The notes beneath the pieces are model-generated. The model searched no databases and was not told the DNA's origin. It was given only the letters and a program-made list of their open reading frames with translations. This document shows, piece after piece, positions 1,865 to 32,991 of a DNA stretch of 43,280 nucleotides. Source of the stretch: Deltaproteobacteria bacterium (lineage in GTDB: Bacteria; UBA10199; GCA-002796325; 1-14-0-20-49-13); NCBI GenBank assembly GCA_016180865.1, contig JACPAJ010000012.1, positions 1-43,280 of the forward strand, read 5' to 3'. The stretch's first letter is position 1. Each line of letters begins with the position of its first letter. A program made the position numbers and the translations under genes.

Positions 1865-1889
1865 GCCCGCCAACGGTTAAGTGGCGGGC
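1865..1889 (-). repeat. GC-rich hairpin GCCCGCCA-N9-TGGCGGGC in the 5' leader of the peptidase gene
   Basis: 8-bp perfect stem with a 9-nt loop. Its reverse complement differs by 1 nt from the hairpin at 28100..28124. Confidence 0.8.
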
Positions 1890-23276: not shown

Positions 23277-23281
23277 ACCAA

Positions 23282-24294
23282 GGGGTCAAGTATTGACTTT
23301 TCACTTTTGATTTGTTAGAAACATGTCATGTCGCGCCCTCTTCGCATTCAATATGCTGGAGCTGTTTATCATGTTATGAACCGTGGAAATGCCCGTCAGG
23401 ATATTTTCGGGCACACAAATCACTACCAATTATTCATTCGTTGCATGTCAGAAATGATCAATTTATGGGAATTAAAATTGCATGCGTTCAGCCTAATGCC
23501 CAACCATTATCATCTATTGATCGAAACGCCCATGGGCAACTTGTCGCGAGCCATGCGGCACTTGAACCATGTGTACACTCAACGCTTTAACCGATTAACA
23601 GGTCGCGATGGCCATCTGTTCAGAGGTCGATATAAATCTATTCTTATAGAGGAAGACGCTTATTTGATAGAATTGTTGCGCTATATTCATCTTAATCCGG
23701 TAAGAGCAGGTATGACAAAAAGACCGGAGCAGCACAGATGGACGTCACACCATTATTATCTTAAAGGGACTGAAACAGGCTTTCTAACGACCACACGCCT
23801 TCTCGAATATTTTGGAAGACGAAGGAATTTGGCGCGAAGGAAATTGCATGAGTTTGTCATGTCCGGTGTGCCGATAGAATTGGAAAAACGTTTATCCGGT
23901 CAGAAATGGCCGTCGGTTTTAAGTAGTGCAAATTTTGAAGAATGGGTCCATTGGAATTTTGTGAAGGATTTGGATGATGAACAGTTGGAATACGTTCCGA
24001 ATCATAATCAGCAAGTTGCAGAAGAATCTCTGCAAAAGATTCTTTGTAAGATATTCGAAACGAATTGGCCATCCCTAAAGAAGCCTCAAGGACACGAACA
24101 ACAAAAGAGGCGTGCCCAAGCAATATGGTTTTATAGGCGTTATTTAAAACTGGGATATAATGAGCTCTCAAAAATATTTGGGCTTGTGCCATCAAGGATA
24201 TCTAAGATCATGAGCAAAAATGACATGGTGTCATCGGAACTCAATGAACAAGTAGTGCTATCCTTGAAAAAGTGAAAAGTCAATACTTGACCCC
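23282..24294 (+). mobile_element. IS200/RAYT-like unit: Y1 transposase gene bounded by perfect 27-bp inverted repeats
   Basis: GGGGTCAAGTATTGACTTTTCACTTTT at 23282..23308 is the exact reverse complement of 24268..24294. Each arm contains a GTCAA-GTA-TTGAC mini-hairpin. The left arm starts 6 nt after the tRNA CCA end. Confidence 0.8.
23328..24275 (+). CDS. HUH/Y1 (IS200-like, REP-associated tyrosine transposase-like) protein with a C-terminal DnaA domain IV-like HTH
   Basis: HUH motif NHYHLLI, catalytic Tyr context LRYIHLNPVRAG, and a C-terminus (RRAQAIWFYRRYLKLGYNELSKIFG...SRISKIMSK) resembling the DnaA C-terminal HTH. Confidence 0.85.
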   Translation: MSRPLRIQYAGAVYHVMNRGNARQDIFGHTNHYQLFIRCMSEMINLWELKLHAFSLMPNHYHLLIETPMGNLSRAMRHLNHVYTQRFNRLTGRDGHLFRGRYKSILIEEDAYLIELLRYIHLNPVRAGMTKRPEQHRWTSHHYYLKGTETGFLTTTRLLEYFGRRRNLARRKLHEFVMSGVPIELEKRLSGQKWPSVLSSANFEEWVHWNFVKDLDDEQLEYVPNHNQQVAEESLQKILCKIFETNWPSLKKPQGHEQQKRRAQAIWFYRRYLKLGYNELSKIFGLVPSRISKIMSKNDMVSSELNEQVVLSLKK

Positions 24295-24414
24295 TATTCC
24301 TATTACCCCTATTCAAATCCTTTTGCCACCGCAAGAAAGGCCGATGGTTCATCGCCACCCGCTTTTTTATAAAATTCCAACGCACTAGCAAGATCAAGAA
24401 CTGCGCGGCCCAAT

Positions 24415-24999
24415 TTATTTTCCTTTTTTTGTGCCATACAACACCCCCATAAAATATGACCATGAGTTTGAATTGCCGGCAAGGAAAATCGGCTCGTAGT
24501 CTATTCCCAGAAGAAACCATGCCGGCGCAACATCTAAGTTTACAAAATCGACTTCACGCGGAAGCTTGTCCACCTCCTCATCAACAGTTCGTTTTAATTT
24601 AAGGAATGCTTCTCCGGTTAAGGCGCGCCCTCCCCTTGTTATGCACAAATCCCAGTCAGAATATTTACGATTATTCCCCTTGGCGCGCGATCCCAAAAGT
24701 CCAACGGCAATTTCCAAGTCAACTGAACAGAGTTTTTTAACGACCGGAATAATTTCTTCAATATCGTCCGTCTTTTGAGCAGAAAAAGGAGATAAAATAG
24801 ATAAAGGATCAATCTGAAGGGTATCGCAAATAACGTAATACGTCTCCGAAAATGGGCCTCCATTTCCTTTGAGATAATTATTTATAGTTGACCTATTAAA
24901 CCCGTGCGCTTTGGCAAACTCCGTAACGTGCGCATATCCCCTTTGGGTTATGATCTGCTTCAGTTTTGCGGCATCAATATGATATCTCATTAACTGCAT
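24415..24999 (-). CDS. XRE-type HTH fused to a minimal nucleotidyltransferase (MNT-like) domain
   Basis: N-terminus has the HTH (YAHVTEFAKAHGFNRSTINNYLKG). The C-terminus has GSRAKGNNRKYSDWDL (GS-x10-DxD) and a later VDFVNLD acidic motif. Confidence 0.8.
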   Translation of the reverse strand: MQLMRYHIDAAKLKQIITQRGYAHVTEFAKAHGFNRSTINNYLKGNGGPFSETYYVICDTLQIDPLSILSPFSAQKTDDIEEIIPVVKKLCSVDLEIAVGLLGSRAKGNNRKYSDWDLCITRGGRALTGEAFLKLKRTVDEEVDKLPREVDFVNLDVAPAWFLLGIDYEPIFLAGNSNSWSYFMGVLYGTKKGK

Positions 25000-26039: not shown

Positions 26040-26070
26040 CTGGACAAAATCGCGTAACTCGTTATATTTA
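26040..26070 (+). promoter_or_regulatory. Promoter/operator-like module, copy C (TGGACA-N16-TATATT)
   Basis: 27 of 31 nt identical to the first 31 nt of copy B. Contains TAAC-NN-GTTA between the -35 and -10 hexamers. Lies 47 nt upstream of the HEPN start. Confidence 0.6.
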
Positions 26071-26116: not shown

Positions 26117-26518
26117 ATGAAACTCGATTTTAGTTCCCTGAAAAAGGCCATCAAAAGCCTGGGCAAGGCCATTGCCAGAACGCAAAAAGAGCCGTTGGAC
26201 GAGGAGTTGCGTGACGCTGTTATTCAGCGTTTTGAATACACTTATGAACTCGCTTGTAAAATGATGAAGCGTCAAATAGAGCAAGAATCCCCGAATCCAT
26301 CCGGAATTGACCAGCTGTCATTCAAAGATCTGCTTCGAACGGTGGCCGAAAAAGGAATTATTACGGACGTTGAGGCATGGCTAGTTTATAGAGACCAGAG
26401 AAATATCACCTCGCATACTGATGACGAGGCCGAGGCCAAAAGCGTTTATGAAACAGCTTTAAAGTTTCATAAAGATGCAGAGGCCTTGTTCTCAAATCTA
26501 GAGAAACGCAAATCATGA
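26117..26518 (+). CDS. HEPN-domain protein, HI0074-type nucleotidyltransferase substrate-binding family (putative toxin)
   Basis: RNITSH matches the Rx4H HEPN motif and the architecture is HI0074-like. Start placed at ATG 26117 (MKLDFSS). The track start at 26024 would run through the promoter module. Confidence 0.85.
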   Translation: MKLDFSSLKKAIKSLGKAIARTQKEPLDEELRDAVIQRFEYTYELACKMMKRQIEQESPNPSGIDQLSFKDLLRTVAEKGIITDVEAWLVYRDQRNITSHTDDEAEAKSVYETALKFHKDAEALFSNLEKRKS

Positions 26519-26844
26519 TCGATATTCCTCATAAACACTTAGAAACAATTATAGCCATCCTCTCAAAATACGTACCCGAACATGAAGTCTGGGCATTTGG
26601 TTCACGGGTTAATCAAAAACCAAAAAAATATGCCGATCTCGACATTGCGATCAAAACCAGCGCCCCGTTACCGGCAGGAACTCTCGCCCTTTTGCGCGAT
26701 GCCTTTTCGGAATCGAACCTGCCATTTAAAGTTGACGTTGTCGACTGGTCAAAAATCAGCAAAGATTTTCAAAAAATCATTGAGGAAAAATTTGAAGTTG
26801 TTCAAGGTAACAAAAGCGTATCTGTGAAAAGGGGGTCAAAATGA
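26515..26844 (+). CDS. Minimal nucleotidyltransferase (MNT, HI0073-type; putative antitoxin)
   Basis: GSRVNQKPKKYADLDI (GS-x10-DxD). ATGA start/stop overlap with the HEPN gene. Confidence 0.88.
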   Translation: MIDIPHKHLETIIAILSKYVPEHEVWAFGSRVNQKPKKYADLDIAIKTSAPLPAGTLALLRDAFSESNLPFKVDVVDWSKISKDFQKIIEEKFEVVQGNKSVSVKRGSK

Positions 26845-27175: not shown

Positions 27176-27210
27176 GGGCTTTTTAGCCCGCCACTAAGGC
27201 GTCGACCGGC
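27176..27210 (+). repeat. Decayed copy of the GCCCGCCACTAA hairpin element
   Basis: GCCCGCCACTAA at 27186..27197 is identical to 28100..28111, but the 3' arm is degraded (CGACCGGC versus TGGCGGGC). It is preceded by a GGGCT-TTTT-AGCCC mini-hairpin. Confidence 0.5.
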
Positions 27211-27217
27211 ACAAATT

Positions 27218-28045
27218 ATGACTAAGATTTCAGAGACAGCTTTTCTTGTAAATTATTTGCGCTCCAAGAATAAAGAATTGAGCGGAGATATTTACTCTGA
27301 CCTTTGGATTGAAGAGACAACATCTGAACTAGCTGAAGAGTTTCAAAGAGAGATAAACCCGCTAGAGTCATACCAATTAAGCCTCCGTCATCGTTTCTTT
27401 TTAGAGTGGGTAAAAAAAGCTATCGCTCAAGGAGTTGAGCGAGTAATCAATGTAGGTGCTGGATTCTCAACTTATACTCATTTGGTCGAGCCACCAATTC
27501 CGACCTGTGATGTTGATTATCAGCATATCGTTGCTTACAAAGCGCAGAAGCTAAAGGAGTTCGAAACAAAGAAGTTAATTCCACATCGTGAAATCGTATT
27601 TCTACCTACCGATTTAAATAATTCCAAGAGCCTCGATAAAATGAAGGAGCAACTTAAGAAATGGGTCATAACAGAAAAATCTTTGGCGATATTGGAAGGT
27701 ATCACCTACTATCTTAATAAACAGCAACTGGATAGAGTTTTTAATGTTCTCTCTAAAATTCAATCTAAAGGTAGTTTAATAGCCGTCCTTTATTGGAAAC
27801 CAGATGCAATAGATAATTCAGTTTTTAAAAAATGGATTCCCTTTGCCAAGAAAAACTATAGTTATGATCCCACCGGCTATACATATCTAACAAAGGGTTA
27901 TTTTGAAGAGTTAGATGGCTATCATATCGTGGACTTTGCAACCTACTTTGATCTTGAAAAGAGGTTTGCTAAGAACAATCGTATTAGGAAAAACAACGAT
28001 AACGTATTTCCCGAAGACTTTGTTGTATTGGAGAAAGTTAGATAA
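27218..28045 (+). CDS. Class I SAM-dependent methyltransferase, LCMT/TcmP-like
   Basis: ISETAFLVNYLRS N-terminus, VINVGAGFSTY SAM motif, CDVDYQHIV and LAILEGITYYL blocks typical of the leucine carboxyl methyltransferase-like family. ATG 27218 preferred over TTG 27158. Confidence 0.8.
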   Translation: MTKISETAFLVNYLRSKNKELSGDIYSDLWIEETTSELAEEFQREINPLESYQLSLRHRFFLEWVKKAIAQGVERVINVGAGFSTYTHLVEPPIPTCDVDYQHIVAYKAQKLKEFETKKLIPHREIVFLPTDLNNSKSLDKMKEQLKKWVITEKSLAILEGITYYLNKQQLDRVFNVLSKIQSKGSLIAVLYWKPDAIDNSVFKKWIPFAKKNYSYDPTGYTYLTKGYFEELDGYHIVDFATYFDLEKRFAKNNRIRKNNDNVFPEDFVVLEKVR

Positions 28046-28053
28046 TCTTTTAC

Positions 28054-28104
28054 TGGACAAACTTGTGTAACTGGTCATATTTAGGCTGGATTTAGCTTGC
28101 CCGC
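28054..28104 (+). promoter_or_regulatory. Promoter/operator-like module, copy A (TGGACA-N16-CATATT)
   Basis: 47 of 51 nt identical to copy B at 29988..30038. Confidence 0.6.
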
Positions 28105-28143
28105 CACTAAACCGTTGGCGGGCGATTCGCCTTTGGCGAATCG
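28100..28143 (+). repeat. Two adjacent perfect hairpins (GCCCGCCA-N9-TGGCGGGC and GATTCGCC-TTT-GGCGAATC)
   Basis: 8-bp stems read directly from the sequence. The first is the same element as 1865..1889. They abut the tRNA fragment. Confidence 0.8.
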
Positions 28144-28183
28144 GAGGGGTGTCTGAGCGGCTTAAAGAGCTGGTCTTGAAAAT
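28144..28183 (+). pseudogene. 5' half of a tRNA-Ser(UGA), ending in the anticodon loop
   Basis: 30 of 40 nt identical to the 5' half of the tRNA at 30544. The last 11 nt, GGTCTTGAAAA, are identical. The D stem carries compensatory changes (TCT/AGA versus ACC/GGT). No 3' half follows. Confidence 0.8.
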
Positions 28184-28380
28184 CTTTTAGGGGGTATTTA
28201 AAAAGGTGAAGGATATCAACAATAACCAAGCAATAACAAAAACTAAGCCCACTTTTCGATTACTGTAAACTACCGCCCTTTACTGGGGATTATTTTTAAA
28301 AATATTTAAAAAAATAAGATACATCCTACGGTGAAAAACTCTTGATGTGTTTAATATTAAGAGATAGCTGTAAATGGAAA

Positions 28381-29157
28381 ATGTTACGATTTGTTTACAT
28401 ATTTGTAATAAGCTCCTTTCTCTTACCGTTAAACGTTCAAGCCGATGACTTTTGGAGTTTAAAAAATATAAATGCTACAAAGCAAGGCATTAAAAACATA
28501 TCACAAACTGTTCATAGATGCTCCGTTGGCCTAAATGGATATTTCAAGAATAAACCTGAACACCTTGTAATCATAACCTATGGAGATAGAGATTCTTTCG
28601 TCAAAGGCTTAGTAAGCGAATTAGGCTTTTCCGTTCAGACAGCAGAATATTTTAGAAAAAGTAGTGCCCCTAGACCTATAAATGGTAAAATGTTGGTACC
28701 TCCAGACCAGCTTTTAGAAAATGTCTGTCATGAAGTAGTACATTACTATTTAGAAAGTACTACGAATAGGGATAATTTATTAAAAGCAAAATGGTTTGAC
28801 GAGGGCACAGCTTCATATCTTGCGGCAATTATCGTCAAGCCAGAATCTATTGATGAAATAATAAAATACTTTAAGAAAACATATGGAAATAATTTTATCC
28901 CTCTTTCAAAAATAGAAACGGAACATGATTGGCATCAATTACATCAAAACATGGAGAGTAGAAACAAAGCATATCTGCAAGCAATGACACAGATGAAATA
29001 TTTCTTTGATAACTATTCGGTATCCCAGTTTAATGAGATTTTGAGTCTTATGAATACTTCAACTTTTAATCAGGCATTTAAAATGATTACAGGTTTGTCG
29101 TCAAAGAAGTTTTATCGCAACTGGATAAAGTGGATGTCTAAAACGGAGAATATATGA
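28381..29157 (+). CDS. Secreted peptidase MA-like (gluzincin) protein
   Basis: Signal peptide MLRFVYIFVISSFLLPLNVQA. HEVVHYYL...WFDEGTASYL matches the HExxH...EG-x-A-x-Y layout of the peptidase_MA_2 type. Upstream TTG/ATG starts at 28342/28345 are possible. Confidence 0.75.
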   Translation: MLRFVYIFVISSFLLPLNVQADDFWSLKNINATKQGIKNISQTVHRCSVGLNGYFKNKPEHLVIITYGDRDSFVKGLVSELGFSVQTAEYFRKSSAPRPINGKMLVPPDQLLENVCHEVVHYYLESTTNRDNLLKAKWFDEGTASYLAAIIVKPESIDEIIKYFKKTYGNNFIPLSKIETEHDWHQLHQNMESRNKAYLQAMTQMKYFFDNYSVSQFNEILSLMNTSTFNQAFKMITGLSSKKFYRNWIKWMSKTENI

Positions 29158-29966
29158 ATCAAAAGAACAATAACACCGATTATCTTAAAAAGCTTGAGAC
29201 TGCTACAGGCGATTTGAAACAGATGAGCGATAAACTATTTGATATGGCTCTCCATCTTGCACTTACTGGAAAGTGGAACAATTGGGAAGAATCAATGCCT
29301 ATCGGTACTACCACTACATTTAATGAAGAAATGCTATTCAAAACAGGTGATGAGTTTATATCAAATTTAACCCGTTTGAGAATGGACTTGCTTAGCGAAG
29401 TTGACCGAATAAAATCCTACTTGGGCAATCAGAAAAAATCGCTACCAATAACAAAACCTTTATTAACAGGCCACAAAACAATAGATAAAGCCACCGGTGG
29501 CTTGAAATGTGGAGATGTCATAGCTTTAGCGGGGGCATCAAATAAAGAAACCGCCTTGAAAGTGATTACGAAGGTAGCTTTACAGGATAAAGTAAACTGT
29601 GGGATATTTTCGCTGGAGAAAAATAAGGAAAAGCTAGTTAAACAGATGCTAAGTATTGGTTCTAAAGTCGGTCTAAATAAAATTACAGGAGGTAGAATAG
29701 CATCTAATGATTGGCCTAAACTAGATAATGCCGCTGACAAGCTATCTACGTCTCCAATCTATATCAAAGACAATATTTCATCTGAACGAGAAATGTCAGA
29801 TTCTACCAGTAAGGCTAAAATAAAACTGGGGCTAATAATGGTGAAAGCTCATAACAAATCTATTCCTGTCAAATCCCTTAAAAACATCGCAACTAATTTG
29901 CAGATACCGATTATAGTAACAACAAAAAAGCCCGTGCATGATTTCGACACGGTAATAAATGTGTAG
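29154..29966 (+). CDS. DnaB C-terminal-domain-like protein with degenerate Walker A and Walker B motifs
   Basis: GHKTIDKATGGLKCGDVIALAGASNKETAL aligns with DnaB G-x-TGF-x-LD-x-T-x-GL-x-GDLII-x-ARPSMGKTAF, with GKT replaced by KET. The Walker B position reads LIMVKAHNK instead of LIVIDYLQL. ATGA overlap with the peptidase gene. Confidence 0.7.
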   Translation: MNQKNNNTDYLKKLETATGDLKQMSDKLFDMALHLALTGKWNNWEESMPIGTTTTFNEEMLFKTGDEFISNLTRLRMDLLSEVDRIKSYLGNQKKSLPITKPLLTGHKTIDKATGGLKCGDVIALAGASNKETALKVITKVALQDKVNCGIFSLEKNKEKLVKQMLSIGSKVGLNKITGGRIASNDWPKLDNAADKLSTSPIYIKDNISSEREMSDSTSKAKIKLGLIMVKAHNKSIPVKSLKNIATNLQIPIIVTTKKPVHDFDTVINV

Positions 29967-29987
29967 AAAACTTCAATCGTTTTATCG

Positions 29988-30038
29988 CTGGACAAACTTG
30001 TGTAACTGGTTATATTTAAGCCGGATTTAGTTTGCCCG
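29988..30038 (+). promoter_or_regulatory. Promoter/operator-like module, copy B (TGGACA-N16-TATATT)
   Basis: See copies A and C. The TAAC-TG-GTTA palindrome overlaps the -10. Lies 20 nt upstream of the lipoprotein start, with AAGAGGA as the SD. Confidence 0.6.
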
Positions 30039-30057
30039 TCTCTAAGAGGAAATTATT

Positions 30058-30534
30058 ATGGATCATAGAACCCTGATTTTGGTGGTGATGTTATTTGCAG
30101 TGCTTGCAGGATGCAGTCAATCTGAAAATATAACAGGTAAGGATAACCTGAGTTTGGCTAAGTCATCTTGCATTAGCAATTATGGCAGGTGGGATGAAAA
30201 GGCAGAGAGCTGTATTAGTGCCCCAACTAATGAATCTGATTGCAATAAGGAAGAAGGAGTTTGGCATAACGCCAATACCGAAAAAGGAATCGAAAAAAGC
30301 CTTCCATCCAAAATTACCCAATCATATTGTGAATTACCTGCAACGGATACAGGCAAAACATGCAAAGACAAATCAGAATGTGACAAATATTGTAAACCAA
30401 TATGCACAAATGGCGCTGAAGATTGTGCTTTGAATGAAATGAATAAGGAATATGGTGAATGCGCTAAATTTTTCGATTTATATGGCGGATATTCATGGAA
30501 CGACGGAGAAGTTGTGGAATGGCGAACATATTAA
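30058..30534 (+). CDS. Cysteine-rich lipoprotein, unknown function
   Basis: Lipobox LAGC after a hydrophobic signal. The mature part has many Cys residues. Good SD. Confidence 0.75.
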
Positions 30535-30543
30535 TTTTTCCTT

Positions 30544-30628
30544 GGAGAGGTGACCGAGTGGTTGATGGTGCCGGTCTTGAAAACCGGTGTGCAGAAATGT
30601 ACCGGGGGTTCAAATCCCTCCCTCTCCG
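30544..30628 (+). tRNA. tRNA-Ser (anticodon UGA), type II, no encoded CCA
   Basis: Acceptor GGAGAGG/CCTCTCC, D stem ACC/GGT, anticodon stem CCGGT/ACCGG with loop CTTGAAA, long variable arm, T loop TTCAAAT. Confidence 0.9.
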
Positions 30629-32991
30629 TTTGCTCCTGAAGGGGGTGAACGGAGGGGCTCCTGATTTGCTCCTGTGCTTAGGAAATGCGCGCCTTCGACT
30701 TTGGAACCATTGGAAGAATAGTTAACGTTTATCCTGCCATCGTCTTCTATATATAATTCGCTGGCGACGTCGACTGGAGGCGCAATTACTTCCGCCTTTT
30801 TCCCGATTTCATCGCACCATTGCCGGATCTTATCTGCAAGCTCATGGCCTGTGCTGCAGCCCAGAAGTATAATTCTTCCTCCGTCTTTCACCTTATTTAA
30901 GTACGTCTTGATTTCTTCATCGCTCACGTCAATTTTCGAGAGCTCATTATCATAACTTTCGCTGAGCGCAAAATCTTTTGCAGAGCCATGCCCTCCAAGA
31001 ACAAGAGCATCTACCGAATTATCGTCTTCTTTCGCCAAGGCTTCATATAACTCCGTTTCACTGTATGGCTCGGCAATCTCCAAGTTATATTTTTCAATAA
31101 TTTTATCGACGCCTTGCGCCGCAAATGCGCCGTTATGATCGTGTCCGGGCAAAGAAACGAAAGCACGAGGTTGATCATACACAGGATTTTTTATCTTTTT
31201 TACGATATCTTTATTGTATCTGCTCCAGTGAGATACTTTTTTATCATCCAGCCATTCGCAATCGGCTGCTGCTTCCGCCAAAGTTATTTTCCCGTCGAAA
31301 AATCCGGAATTATAAGCATACCCGAATAATTCAACTATGCGGTAATATCTGAATTTATTAACAACCTCCGGCCAAAGCGGATCGTTTTTCAACAGCGCTA
31401 GCTTATTATCATCAAGCAATTTAAAACCTGACATCGCTTTTGACAGATAACATTTATTAAAATACATAATATCCAAAAACATGCCCATTTCATCCCCGTT
31501 TTGGTAAACATCAAGTCTTGACGCAAAACTCATTAAATCTTCCAAATAATACGACTTGTTTCTGCCGTAAACCCCCATAAAACCGTTCACGGTATCAATG
31601 ATAAGATCATCCTTGATTTTATAATCTCTCATTCTCTTGATGCAGGAGTTAATCGAGCGAAGGCTTGGAAACCCGAGCGAAATAATGTCGGCGAATCTCT
31701 CTTTTGCTTCAGAAGAAACATTCATTTCTTTTAATTGGCCAAAAAGTTCTTTTAGCTCTCCTTCGGAGAAATCATATTTATAAGATGACGCTTGCACAGC
31801 CCAGCAAAGTCTCTTATCTTCAGGAACAATACCTTCTGCCACTTCAAACGCTCTCGGTATAACATTAAAATTTTTCCCACTGAAAAAACACACTTTAATA
31901 ATTCTTCGAAGTTGTTCTTTATCTTTGGAAATATTTTTCAGCCATTTTACATTATCAGCAAACGTCGAAAATGGAAAACCAGCGTAAGAATCGCCAACAT
32001 CCCCTGCTGCTAAATATTTTTTTAAATCCGCAACGGGATCCAGTTCGGCCAGCATCAATCCCTCCGCAACCTTTGGGATTGAATCTATTATTTGACCGGC
32101 CGCAAAATATCGCGAGGCGGATTTTATTATTATCTTGATATCTTCTTCTCCAACACCCCTCTCTCTTAAATATCTGACTGCTGATTCTAACCTGCCATCG
32201 AATATGCAAAGGCCGTTAAGATGCTCTCTTTTTTCCTCCAGTGCAGCTCTTACAAATGAAGCTAATTCAAAACTGTCGAAAAGCTTTAGCCCGGCATTTA
32301 TAGAAATCATGTCTTCCGCATATTTCAAAGCAAAAGGATCTCTTTTGATTATCTCTTTTATTTCGGCATCGGTCAGCCCCAAACCGGAATATGCGCCGAT
32401 GGCGCCTTGCAAATGCCCGGCTAATACGGTCACAGAAAAAGGGCCTTCGACGATTATCGATTTTAAGAATCCTTTCTTTTCGTCTTCGGAATTAAACTTC
32501 AATTTGCCAAGAGCTTCATAAGCCTTGGTTATCATTCCTCCTTCACCAGCACGGTATGCATAATAACCCGCTCCATCAACGATTTGAGATTCAGAGAGGC
32601 CGATAAGACCAAACTCCGGAACCCGTTCAGCTATCGGCTTCAGATAGTTTTTTATCCCCTCATCATAATTCGACTCCTCCCTATTAACGATAAACCCTGA
32701 AAGGAGAAAAAGTTTTTCATAAGGGTCGGCGATAGAACACTTTTCCAGCTCTGCATTGAACCTGCTAAGTAGATTTTTGGAAAATATCTTTGAAACAGCA
32801 CGCTCTTCCAAAGGAGAGTTTTTGAAGCTAAGATATTCTTCAAGCGTAATAATTTTATCCCCGTTCGCATCCGCCAAAGAAATATCCGATTTCCCATCGG
32901 CATGCTGGAGCTCCGCCTCATCAATCCTAAAATCCTCATTAGAATCAACCGGTTGGAAGCTTTTCAGTATCTCTCTGATATACGTAGTCAT
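30610..32991 (-). CDS. Large (793 aa) multidomain protein: N-terminal EF-hand-like loop, C-terminal His/Cys module (caspase/CHAT- or DUF4347-like)
   Basis: [12 protein letters not shown] fits most EF-hand loop positions. The C-terminus has ALVLGGHGS ... [14 protein letters not shown], the beta-strand-His ... beta-strand-Cys layout of caspase-fold/CHAT-like domains. The last 19 nt overlap the tRNA-Ser gene on the opposite strand. Confidence 0.7.

Follow-up and report, generated by a model that had tools for sequence, protein, structure and literature searches.

How did half of a tRNA gene come to lie upstream of a complete gene of the same identity, and which side of the present arrangement is the newcomer? 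tRNA genes are the main landing sites of mobile DNA, and the scars described at them are nearly all 3' fragments. The window analysed here, 43,280 nt of chromosomal DNA from an uncultured groundwater bacterium, holds a 5' half. It carries, in order, the dcw cluster (4–22.8 kb), tRNA-Ser(GGA), a 7-kb stretch of lower GC and tRNA-Ser(UGA), followed by an ORFan-like gene for a 793-aa protein, an ADP-forming acetyl-CoA synthetase gene and PBP1A. Between the two tRNA genes lie a RAYT/IS200-like gene, an HTH-nucleotidyltransferase gene, a HepT/MntA pair, DsrE, an LCM-type methyltransferase gene, a HExxH peptidase-like gene, a gene consisting only of a DnaB_C domain with a degenerate Walker A motif, and a lipoprotein gene. 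The working tRNA-Ser(UGA) gene occupies 30544–30629 on the plus strand; it does not encode CCA, which tRNA-Ser(GGA) in the same window does.

The half gene is found at positions 28143–28182 of the plus strand and covers nt 1–40 of a tRNA-Ser(UGA), comprising the acceptor strand, the D arm, one strand of the anticodon stem, the anticodon loop and one further nucleotide. [quoted passage not shown] The final 11 nt, GGTCTTGAAAA, are indeed identical in the two copies and occur nowhere else in the window. When the window was shuffled 300 times, the best 40-mer matched the working 5' half at no more than 26 of 40 positions, and the only other high score in the window itself, 29/40, belongs to the paralogous tRNA-Ser(GGA). 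Chance similarity among tRNA-like sequences, which the annotation had named as its own possible undoing, does not reach the observed value.

The anatomy of the fragment includes all of the features expected of the 5' part of a class II tRNA. A 7-nt acceptor strand, GGAGGGG, is followed by UG. The D stem has three base pairs, TCT/AGA in the fragment as against ACC/GGT in the working gene, so the differences are compensatory, as annotated, and the D loop of the fragment has 11 nt. The anticodon stem strand CTGGT leads into the anticodon loop CTTGAAA. Joined to a suitable 3' half, the fragment is called as tRNA-Ser(UGA) by ARAGORN. Neither ARAGORN nor Rfam called a tRNA at the position itself, as expected of a half gene, and Rfam searches around it with permissive E-values gave chance matches only and no family. 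The half tRNA gene is thus confirmed as real and far beyond chance: significant partial tRNA similarity and a correct partial cloverleaf, with no complete gene, make it a tRNA pseudogene, or tDNA fragment. It presumably has no tRNA function today.

The fragment lies directly behind a promoter-like module and two hairpins, in agreement with the annotation. Module A (28043–28098, plus strand) consists of a T-tract, a -35 element TGGACA (28054–28059), a -10 element CATATT (28076–28081) and the 15-nt leader GGCTGGATTTAGCTT. Hairpin 1 (28099–28123) has the form GCCCGCCA-9 nt-TGGCGGGC and hairpin 2 (28124–28142) the form GATTCGCC-TTT-GGCGAATC, each with a perfect 8-bp stem. Immediately to the left is the LCM/TIGR00027-type SAM methyltransferase gene (27218–28045, plus strand).

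Related DNA contains this unit in complete form. A scan of JGI metagenomes with the module pattern gave two true matches. In one, L006, the module stands directly before a complete tRNA-Ser(UGA). In the other, L007, a contig with housekeeping genes, the module is followed by the 15-nt leader, hairpin 1 with one mismatch, GAATC and a complete tRNA-Ser(UGA), and a methyltransferase homologue adjoins the unit. Five more contigs were found as methyltransferase homologues. L016 (69% identity) has the methyltransferase gene, four other genes, the module, a hairpin leader and a complete tRNA-Ser(UGA), whereas in L020 (82%) the methyltransferase gene, module, hairpin leader and the start of the tRNA follow one another directly. 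The junction between the stop codon and the module is the same as in the window in L020 and in L017–L019 (86% at the amino acid level); two contigs with an uninterrupted unit have the window's methyltransferase gene immediately upstream. The methyltransferase gene is, in these relatives, the conserved left neighbour of the promoter-leader-tRNA unit. The closest match of the fragment is the L016 tRNA, at 33/40, above its match to the window's own working gene.

These intact units indicate that 28043–28182 is the remnant of such a unit, and they bear out the proposal of an origin from a different tRNA-Ser(UGA) gene that was once functional. This gene had a promoter and leader of its own, and relatives keep intact counterparts. 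The conserved junction suggests further that the fragment is in its ancestral position, a feature that fits insertion in situ as well as import. The uninterrupted module-hairpins-tRNA-Ser arrangement that the annotation recommended looking for, as an empty site, was therefore found in part: the arrangement exists (L007, L016 and L020), but the intact genes of the fragment's type carry other 3' halves than the one now downstream.

Several neighbouring features were also observed. The 793-aa protein (30610–32991, minus strand; low GC, no Pfam domain) has a single homologue, 73% identical, among 5.8 billion proteins, and its gene adjoins the tRNA both in the contig of that homologue, L005, and in the sister population described below. 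[quoted passage not shown] A terminator-like hairpin at 30623–30655 uses the last acceptor-strand bases of the tRNA (CTCCGTTTGC...GAACGGAG) and is kept in L005 (6650–6690). The methyltransferase family is found repeatedly beside tRNA-Ser genes: in a Deltaproteobacteria MAG (L010, 5715–5925), a 35% identical homologue follows tRNA-Ser(GCU), with a short repeat of the tRNA 3' end some 100 nt downstream.

Hairpin 1 is a dispersed, REP-like palindrome. A free-standing, inverted copy with one mismatch lies at 1865–1889 (minus strand), and a decayed copy at 27186–27210 (plus strand), just upstream of the methyltransferase start codon, is intact at the same place in L017–L019. The palindrome recurs in the tRNA leader of L007 (12395–12419) and in community contigs. 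Several extragenic, GC-rich copies in both orientations place it among REP/BIME-like palindromes. At the site of hairpin 2, L007 has GGCGAATC alone, which points to an origin of hairpin 2 through a 14-nt inverted addition. Other hairpins occupy this part of the leader in L016 and L020, so this tRNA leader seems to have hosted REP-like insertions repeatedly. The pair of hairpins also stands directly before another tRNA gene (start ...GGGCCTCTAGCTCAATGGTAGAGC, Met/Ile2-like); the depth of its contigs tracks the window genome in three runs, and it apparently belongs to the same genome. The window's RAYT-like gene (23328–24275, 315 aa, Y1_Tnp; 78.2 bits to NCBIfam REP_Tyr_transpos, for which the cut-off is 80) lies between the arms of another, perfect 28-nt inverted repeat and not between copies of hairpin 1. 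This repeat contains GTCAAGTATTGAC, and the unit that it bounds (23281–24295) begins 5 nt past the end of tRNA-Ser(GGA); its X2 contig has the summed depth of the two populations discussed below.

Two further copies of the promoter module are present in the window. Module B (29978–30045, plus strand) is an A-type copy that continues through the leader into the 5' arm of hairpin 1 (GCCCGTCTCTAA) and has the same spacer, CTTGT, as A; the two are 90% identical over 58 nt (28053–28110 against 29988–30045). The third copy (26040–26070, plus strand), TGGACA-16-TATATT, precedes the HepT/MntA-DsrE-methyltransferase genes, and its last 18 nt are identical to the tRNA-proximal promoter of the sister population. 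All three share TGGACA-16 nt-(T/C)ATATT, and each heads a block of genes. The spacer of A and B is absent from every other copy, and A and B would on this evidence be recent paralogues, even though the tRNA halves behind them differ by 25% (10/40). Judged from its distribution, the module (28053–28083 in A) is the native, lineage-wide promoter of tRNA-Ser(UGA). Module B is predicted to drive the lipoprotein gene (30058–30534, plus strand) and, through read-through, the tRNA. A candidate for a decayed resident promoter within the lipoprotein gene, shortly before the working tRNA, was rejected, since its alignment was no better than that of 33% of random windows.

The promoter-leader region of tRNA-Ser(UGA) shows about 85% identity between modules (71/83 for module A of the window against L007). 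In the same organisms, the adjacent methyltransferase proteins are 39% identical and the tRNA 5' halves about 72%, so that non-coding DNA here outdoes the tRNA in conservation. Overlapping the -10 element, the module also carries an inverted repeat, TAAC-NN-GTTA, at 26056–26067, 28069–28080 and 30004–30015 of the window and in L006, L007 and L020, where it forms a palindrome of 14 nt with no mismatch, TATAACCGGTTATA. The repeat may serve as an operator. Of the window's copies, module A alone has it broken (GTCA), and L016 also departs from it, with TAAG for TAAC.

With a promoter-like module immediately upstream and a stable fold (-46 kcal/mol, z = -2.8), the promoter-hairpins-half-tRNA unit might be thought to have been kept for a function, be it that of a structured 5' leader or of a small RNA such as a regulator resembling a tRNA half. 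We consider this very improbable. The hexamer CATATT is peculiar to module A, all other copies having TATATT, and the same change breaks the TAAC-NN-GTTA repeat. Positions 28183–28380 contain neither a terminator behind the fragment nor another promoter; none of the other contigs searched contains the unit, and it matches no Rfam family. At most, a weakened module A would still transcribe the fragment within the 5' untranslated region of the peptidase/DnaB-like operon.

Where exactly the half gene was cut bears on how it was cut. The annotation placed the end of the identity in the anticodon loop. A break in the loop region is upheld, although the exact end differs: the tRNA-likeness takes in one base of the anticodon stem's 3' strand before it stops, and so ends one base beyond the loop. 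The anticodon loop is the commonest crossover site of integrases, accounting for 2083 of the 3919 islands in Islander (PMC4383910), and a cut one base past it suggests that the truncating event was probably a crossover of the tyrosine-integrase type. The end of the fragment thus coincides with a recognised crossover sublocation, with the small doubt that one distant tRNA aligns as far as 28196. This is a community tRNA-Ser(UGA), seen in three runs, which aligns past the fragment, over 28183–28196 up to TTAGGGGG, with 10 mismatches in 55 nt; that last sequence is the 5' strand of its variable arm.

That alignment, hinting at a true break in the variable arm, is one reason to weigh an explanation without any site-specific recombination, in which the arrival of the low-GC DNA, with illegitimate recombination or a deletion, cut short a second tRNA-Ser(UGA) copy, redundant or imported, and the position of the breakpoint is coincidental. 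Other breakpoints nearby are not of the att kind: the 26040 module is cut right after its -10 element, module B is cut inside hairpin 1, and the upstream copy of hairpin 1 has decayed. Nor were an integrase, arm sites, a partner junction or a displaced 3' half found, the last having been sought in the window by T-loop motif search and blastn-short. We nevertheless hold such a coincidence to be unlikely, because the identity ends within 1 nt of the 3' edge of the loop, where a random break would fall only a few percent of the time, and because L016, the closest intact relative, has no similarity to the window beyond 28182.

Beyond the breakpoint, the DNA appears foreign. The segment 28183–29979 (plus strand) has a GC content of 0.35, and GC stays at 0.35 over 28–30 kb as against about 0.47 in the flanks; its cargo, a secreted HExxH peptidase-like gene (28381–29157) overlapping the DnaB_C-only gene (29154–29966), has almost no relatives. 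Farther upstream, the 7-kb stretch includes a second HTH-nucleotidyltransferase gene (24415–24999, minus strand) and the HepT-like/MntA-like toxin-antitoxin pair (26117–26844), predicted to be transcribed from the 26040 copy of the tRNA promoter. The annotation noted that no integrase remains, and this holds: Pfam and NCBIfam scans of all ORFs of at least 80 aa between 23.3 and 30.6 kb detected none, hence no tyrosine-recombinase gene in the interval, and the non-coding gaps are too short to leave room for a remnant. No cargo relative was found in company with an integrase. Searched for the exact fragment, the module and the peptidase and DnaB-like proteins, viral contigs yielded nothing or one chance coding match; tblastn against plasmids gave ordinary DnaB only, and PADLOC and PHROGs returned nothing useful on the cargo. 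The strict module pattern had no match in GTDB genomes, a pattern that is too strict for spacers of the L006/L007 type.

The sole close homologue of the DnaB_C-only protein (64%) lies in L009 (1–12075), on the 5' side of a tRNA-Met gene. Two tandem tRNA 3' fragments follow across the tRNA-Met, and then SIR2-like, GIY-YIG and restriction-modification genes; the locus looks like a defence-island hot spot.

From the fragment and this interior, the annotation had arrived at an integrative element that carried its own 5' tRNA half. In this account, the anticodon loop of a resident gene was the site of recombination with a small element (28183–30583) that held, besides a tRNA 5' half of its own, the lipoprotein gene and module B. 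The event, in situ or in a common ancestor with the sister population, displaced the resident promoter, hairpins and 5' half upstream, and the element later lost its integrase. Much of the geometry agrees with it. The fragment lies upstream of an intact tRNA gene, in the same orientation (28143–28182 and 30544–30629, both plus), and ends at the anticodon loop, as in the 5'-fragment islands of Islander; an 11-nt core is common to both copies; the interior is low in GC; and the fragment occupies the place after the methyltransferase gene where relatives hold an intact gene. In addition, the incoming side would supply a promoter, as the geometry requires: with a 5' fragment, the tRNA gene comes to depend on a promoter borne by the element, as a review of archaeal recombinases points out (PMC8371274). 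The fragment can even be joined to the present 3' half in a valid tRNA-Ser fold, with two G-U pairs, while the converse chimera has two mismatches.

The 3' halves of the intact genes bear on this hybrid origin. Within the working gene, pairing between the two present halves is perfect. The 3' half reads ACCGG...CCTCTCC (ACCGG...CCTCTCCG), with a T arm and acceptor strand 25/26 identical to those of L006 and 21/26 to those of L016. The intact fragment-like tRNAs, on the other hand, all continue with CCAG (ACCAG), and their 3' acceptor strand, where read (L016 and L007), is CCCCTCC. The present 5' half itself could not be sorted by MAFFT or global identities into an L016 type or an L006/L007 type, which makes the typing of halves weak evidence. 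The 11-nt core is merely the conserved anticodon region of tRNA-Ser(UGA), and the spacer shared by modules A and B, set against tRNA halves that differ at 10 of 40 positions, is unexpected for co-evolved promoter-tRNA pairs from related hosts.

A contrast with the hybrid account comes from the same samples. Contigs of the four runs that hold the window (X1–X4) were placed on it, and a second population emerged in X2–X4, absent from X1, with a divergence of 5–7% in rsmH/mraZ and 10–15% in the gene of the 793-aa protein. In its contigs, the sequence ...CGTAACTCGTTATATTTA GGCCAGATTTGG CTT GGAGAGGTGACC... joins a module of the 26040 type and the canonical 15-nt leader directly to the same tRNA. 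The sister has at this position none of the fragment, peptidase gene, DnaB-like gene, module B and lipoprotein gene, and it shares an identical 85-nt tRNA and the same downstream DNA. A contig covering the whole 85 nt with no mismatch has a depth above that of the window strain in each run, about the sum of both populations in X3 and somewhat less than that sum in X2 and X4. In X1, one contig spans the tRNA without a break. Sequence and depth together indicate that the sister carries the identical, complete tRNA. Zero depth in X2 was not counted as evidence, because placement had missed one long collinear X2 contig, and the sister and other relatives are known from short, broken contigs, the Logan contigs being unable to show absence.

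An element from 28184 to 30572 that joined its own 5' half to an old 3' half is not supported in view of this sister, in which the whole gene exists, unchanged, with no trace of the segment and with a canonical promoter and leader. As the sister's proximal promoter is of the 26040 type and not of the B type, the sister is not simply a deletion derivative either. Against a regenerated hybrid gene, whose empty site would consist of the fragment and the resident part, also stand the other 3' halves of the intact fragment-type genes and the finding that no community contig of the runs joins 28182 to 30584. An intact version of the 28.2–30.5 kb segment with an integrase, which the annotation suggested searching for, did not turn up, the only close DnaB-like homologue lying in the different island next to tRNA-Met. 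The interval lacks an integrase, and no att arm repeats were noticed in it, these not having been the object of a dedicated search. Taken as a whole, the element with its own 5' half seems to us possible but doubtful.

We lean, with middling confidence in the reading as a whole, towards a scar left by gene turnover within a hypervariable array that has promoter repeats as its boundaries: the half gene would have been cut by a crossover at the anticodon loop, and the element responsible would since have been lost. Under this reading, 28043–28182 would be what is left of a complete transcription unit of promoter, hairpin leader and tRNA-Ser(UGA), still sitting where relatives keep the intact unit, right after the methyltransferase gene. 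Of the part 3' to the anticodon loop nothing is left, and low-GC, foreign-looking DNA begins there. The working gene would be best understood as a complete, separately inherited gene rather than a hybrid of an element-borne 5' half and an old 3' half, and the two units would have been joined by recombination upstream of tRNA-Ser(UGA). The truncation may have taken place in this lineage or in a donor, and the element and its partner junction would no longer be recognisable.

The stretch upstream of the working tRNA would then be a series of hypervariable cassettes, each headed by a tRNA promoter: the 26040 module before the toxin-antitoxin, DsrE and methyltransferase genes, A before the peptidase and DnaB-like genes, and B before the lipoprotein gene and the tRNA. 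The sister has two modules 776 nt apart, which suggests that module-bounded arrays recur upstream of this tRNA. Some observations sit less comfortably with gene turnover of this kind. The two G-U pairs by which the fragment fits the present 3' half are compatible with a hybrid ancestor, and the conserved methyltransferase-promoter junction fits an insertion in situ equally well. Replacement of the whole gene predicts a displaced 3' half, and its absence from the window means that a deletion must be assumed; the site-specific step has no integrase or att arm sites in its support.

The same array could be seen more boldly, with the tRNA-Ser(UGA) promoter module as a portable recombination anchor by which DNA circles or fragments bearing the module, in some cases along with leader and tRNA 5' sequence, insert 5' of the tRNA, in the manner of an integron-like array. 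This we think quite unlikely. If it were true, each cassette would arrive with a ready promoter, and the half tRNA would be a fossil of cassettes cut from the tRNA-Ser loci of other genomes.

The locus offers a clean case of the rare 5'-side scar, one in which promoter and leader survive and for which relatives supply the intact form. As such it should be useful to island-finding software, and it presents tRNA promoters that appear to have been duplicated and reused for cargo genes. It also illustrates that a displaced half gene alone does not tell which side came in: the obvious reading was overturned here by data on the populations in the same samples. Otherwise, it is a pseudogene of an uncultured groundwater bacterium with no evident phenotype, and a fairly ordinary genomic scar.

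Among known systems, the nearest are the 5'-fragment islands of Islander, a bacterial minority class, and the pTN3-like elements of Thermococcales. The annotation was right to call this geometry the rarer one, given 159 islands with a 5' tDNA fragment and 3760 with a 3' fragment (PMC4383910). The likeness extends from the intact tRNA with an upstream fragment in the same orientation to the break in the anticodon loop, the promoter of the working gene on the inserted side and the foreign composition of the interior. Here, however, there is no integrase, the interval is just 2.4 kb, the working 5' half is not demonstrably derived from an element, being identical in the island-free sister, and the fragment is 25% off the working gene rather than a near-copy. 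The tRNA-dependent lysogeny of mycobacteriophages (PMC10865867) resembles our case in its short core of about 10 bp (11 nt here) and in a resident tRNA gene that is inactivated and not restored, its function being supplied by a complete gene of the same isotype nearby. It differs in that our window has no prophage, integrase or displaced 3' half, and the complete tRNA is chromosomal, shared with the sister together with its downstream neighbours.

In hairpin 1, a 25-nt GC-rich palindrome that recurs, in either orientation, between genes at several sites and in related genomes, and that belongs to a doublet here, the locus also resembles REP/BIME elements, with the differences that the RAYT-like gene of the window is bracketed by another 28-nt repeat and that two copies of hairpin 1 abut tRNA 5' ends. 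Finally, the tRNA fragments and pseudogenes at island hot spots, where tandem accretion occurs at tDNAs (PMC9897764), share with this locus a partial tRNA beside a tRNA gene and variable, low-GC cargo (toxin-antitoxin pairs, the RAYT-like gene and the DnaB-like gene). Here the fragment is 5' and not 3', with a complete promoter and leader kept, and accretion is 5'-sided, with promoter copies rather than tRNA fragments between the cassettes. The half gene thus belongs to the known category of tDNA fragments at island hot spots, as one of the rarer 5' type; the array of promoter-repeat cassettes and the REP-like tRNA leaders are its more unusual aspects.
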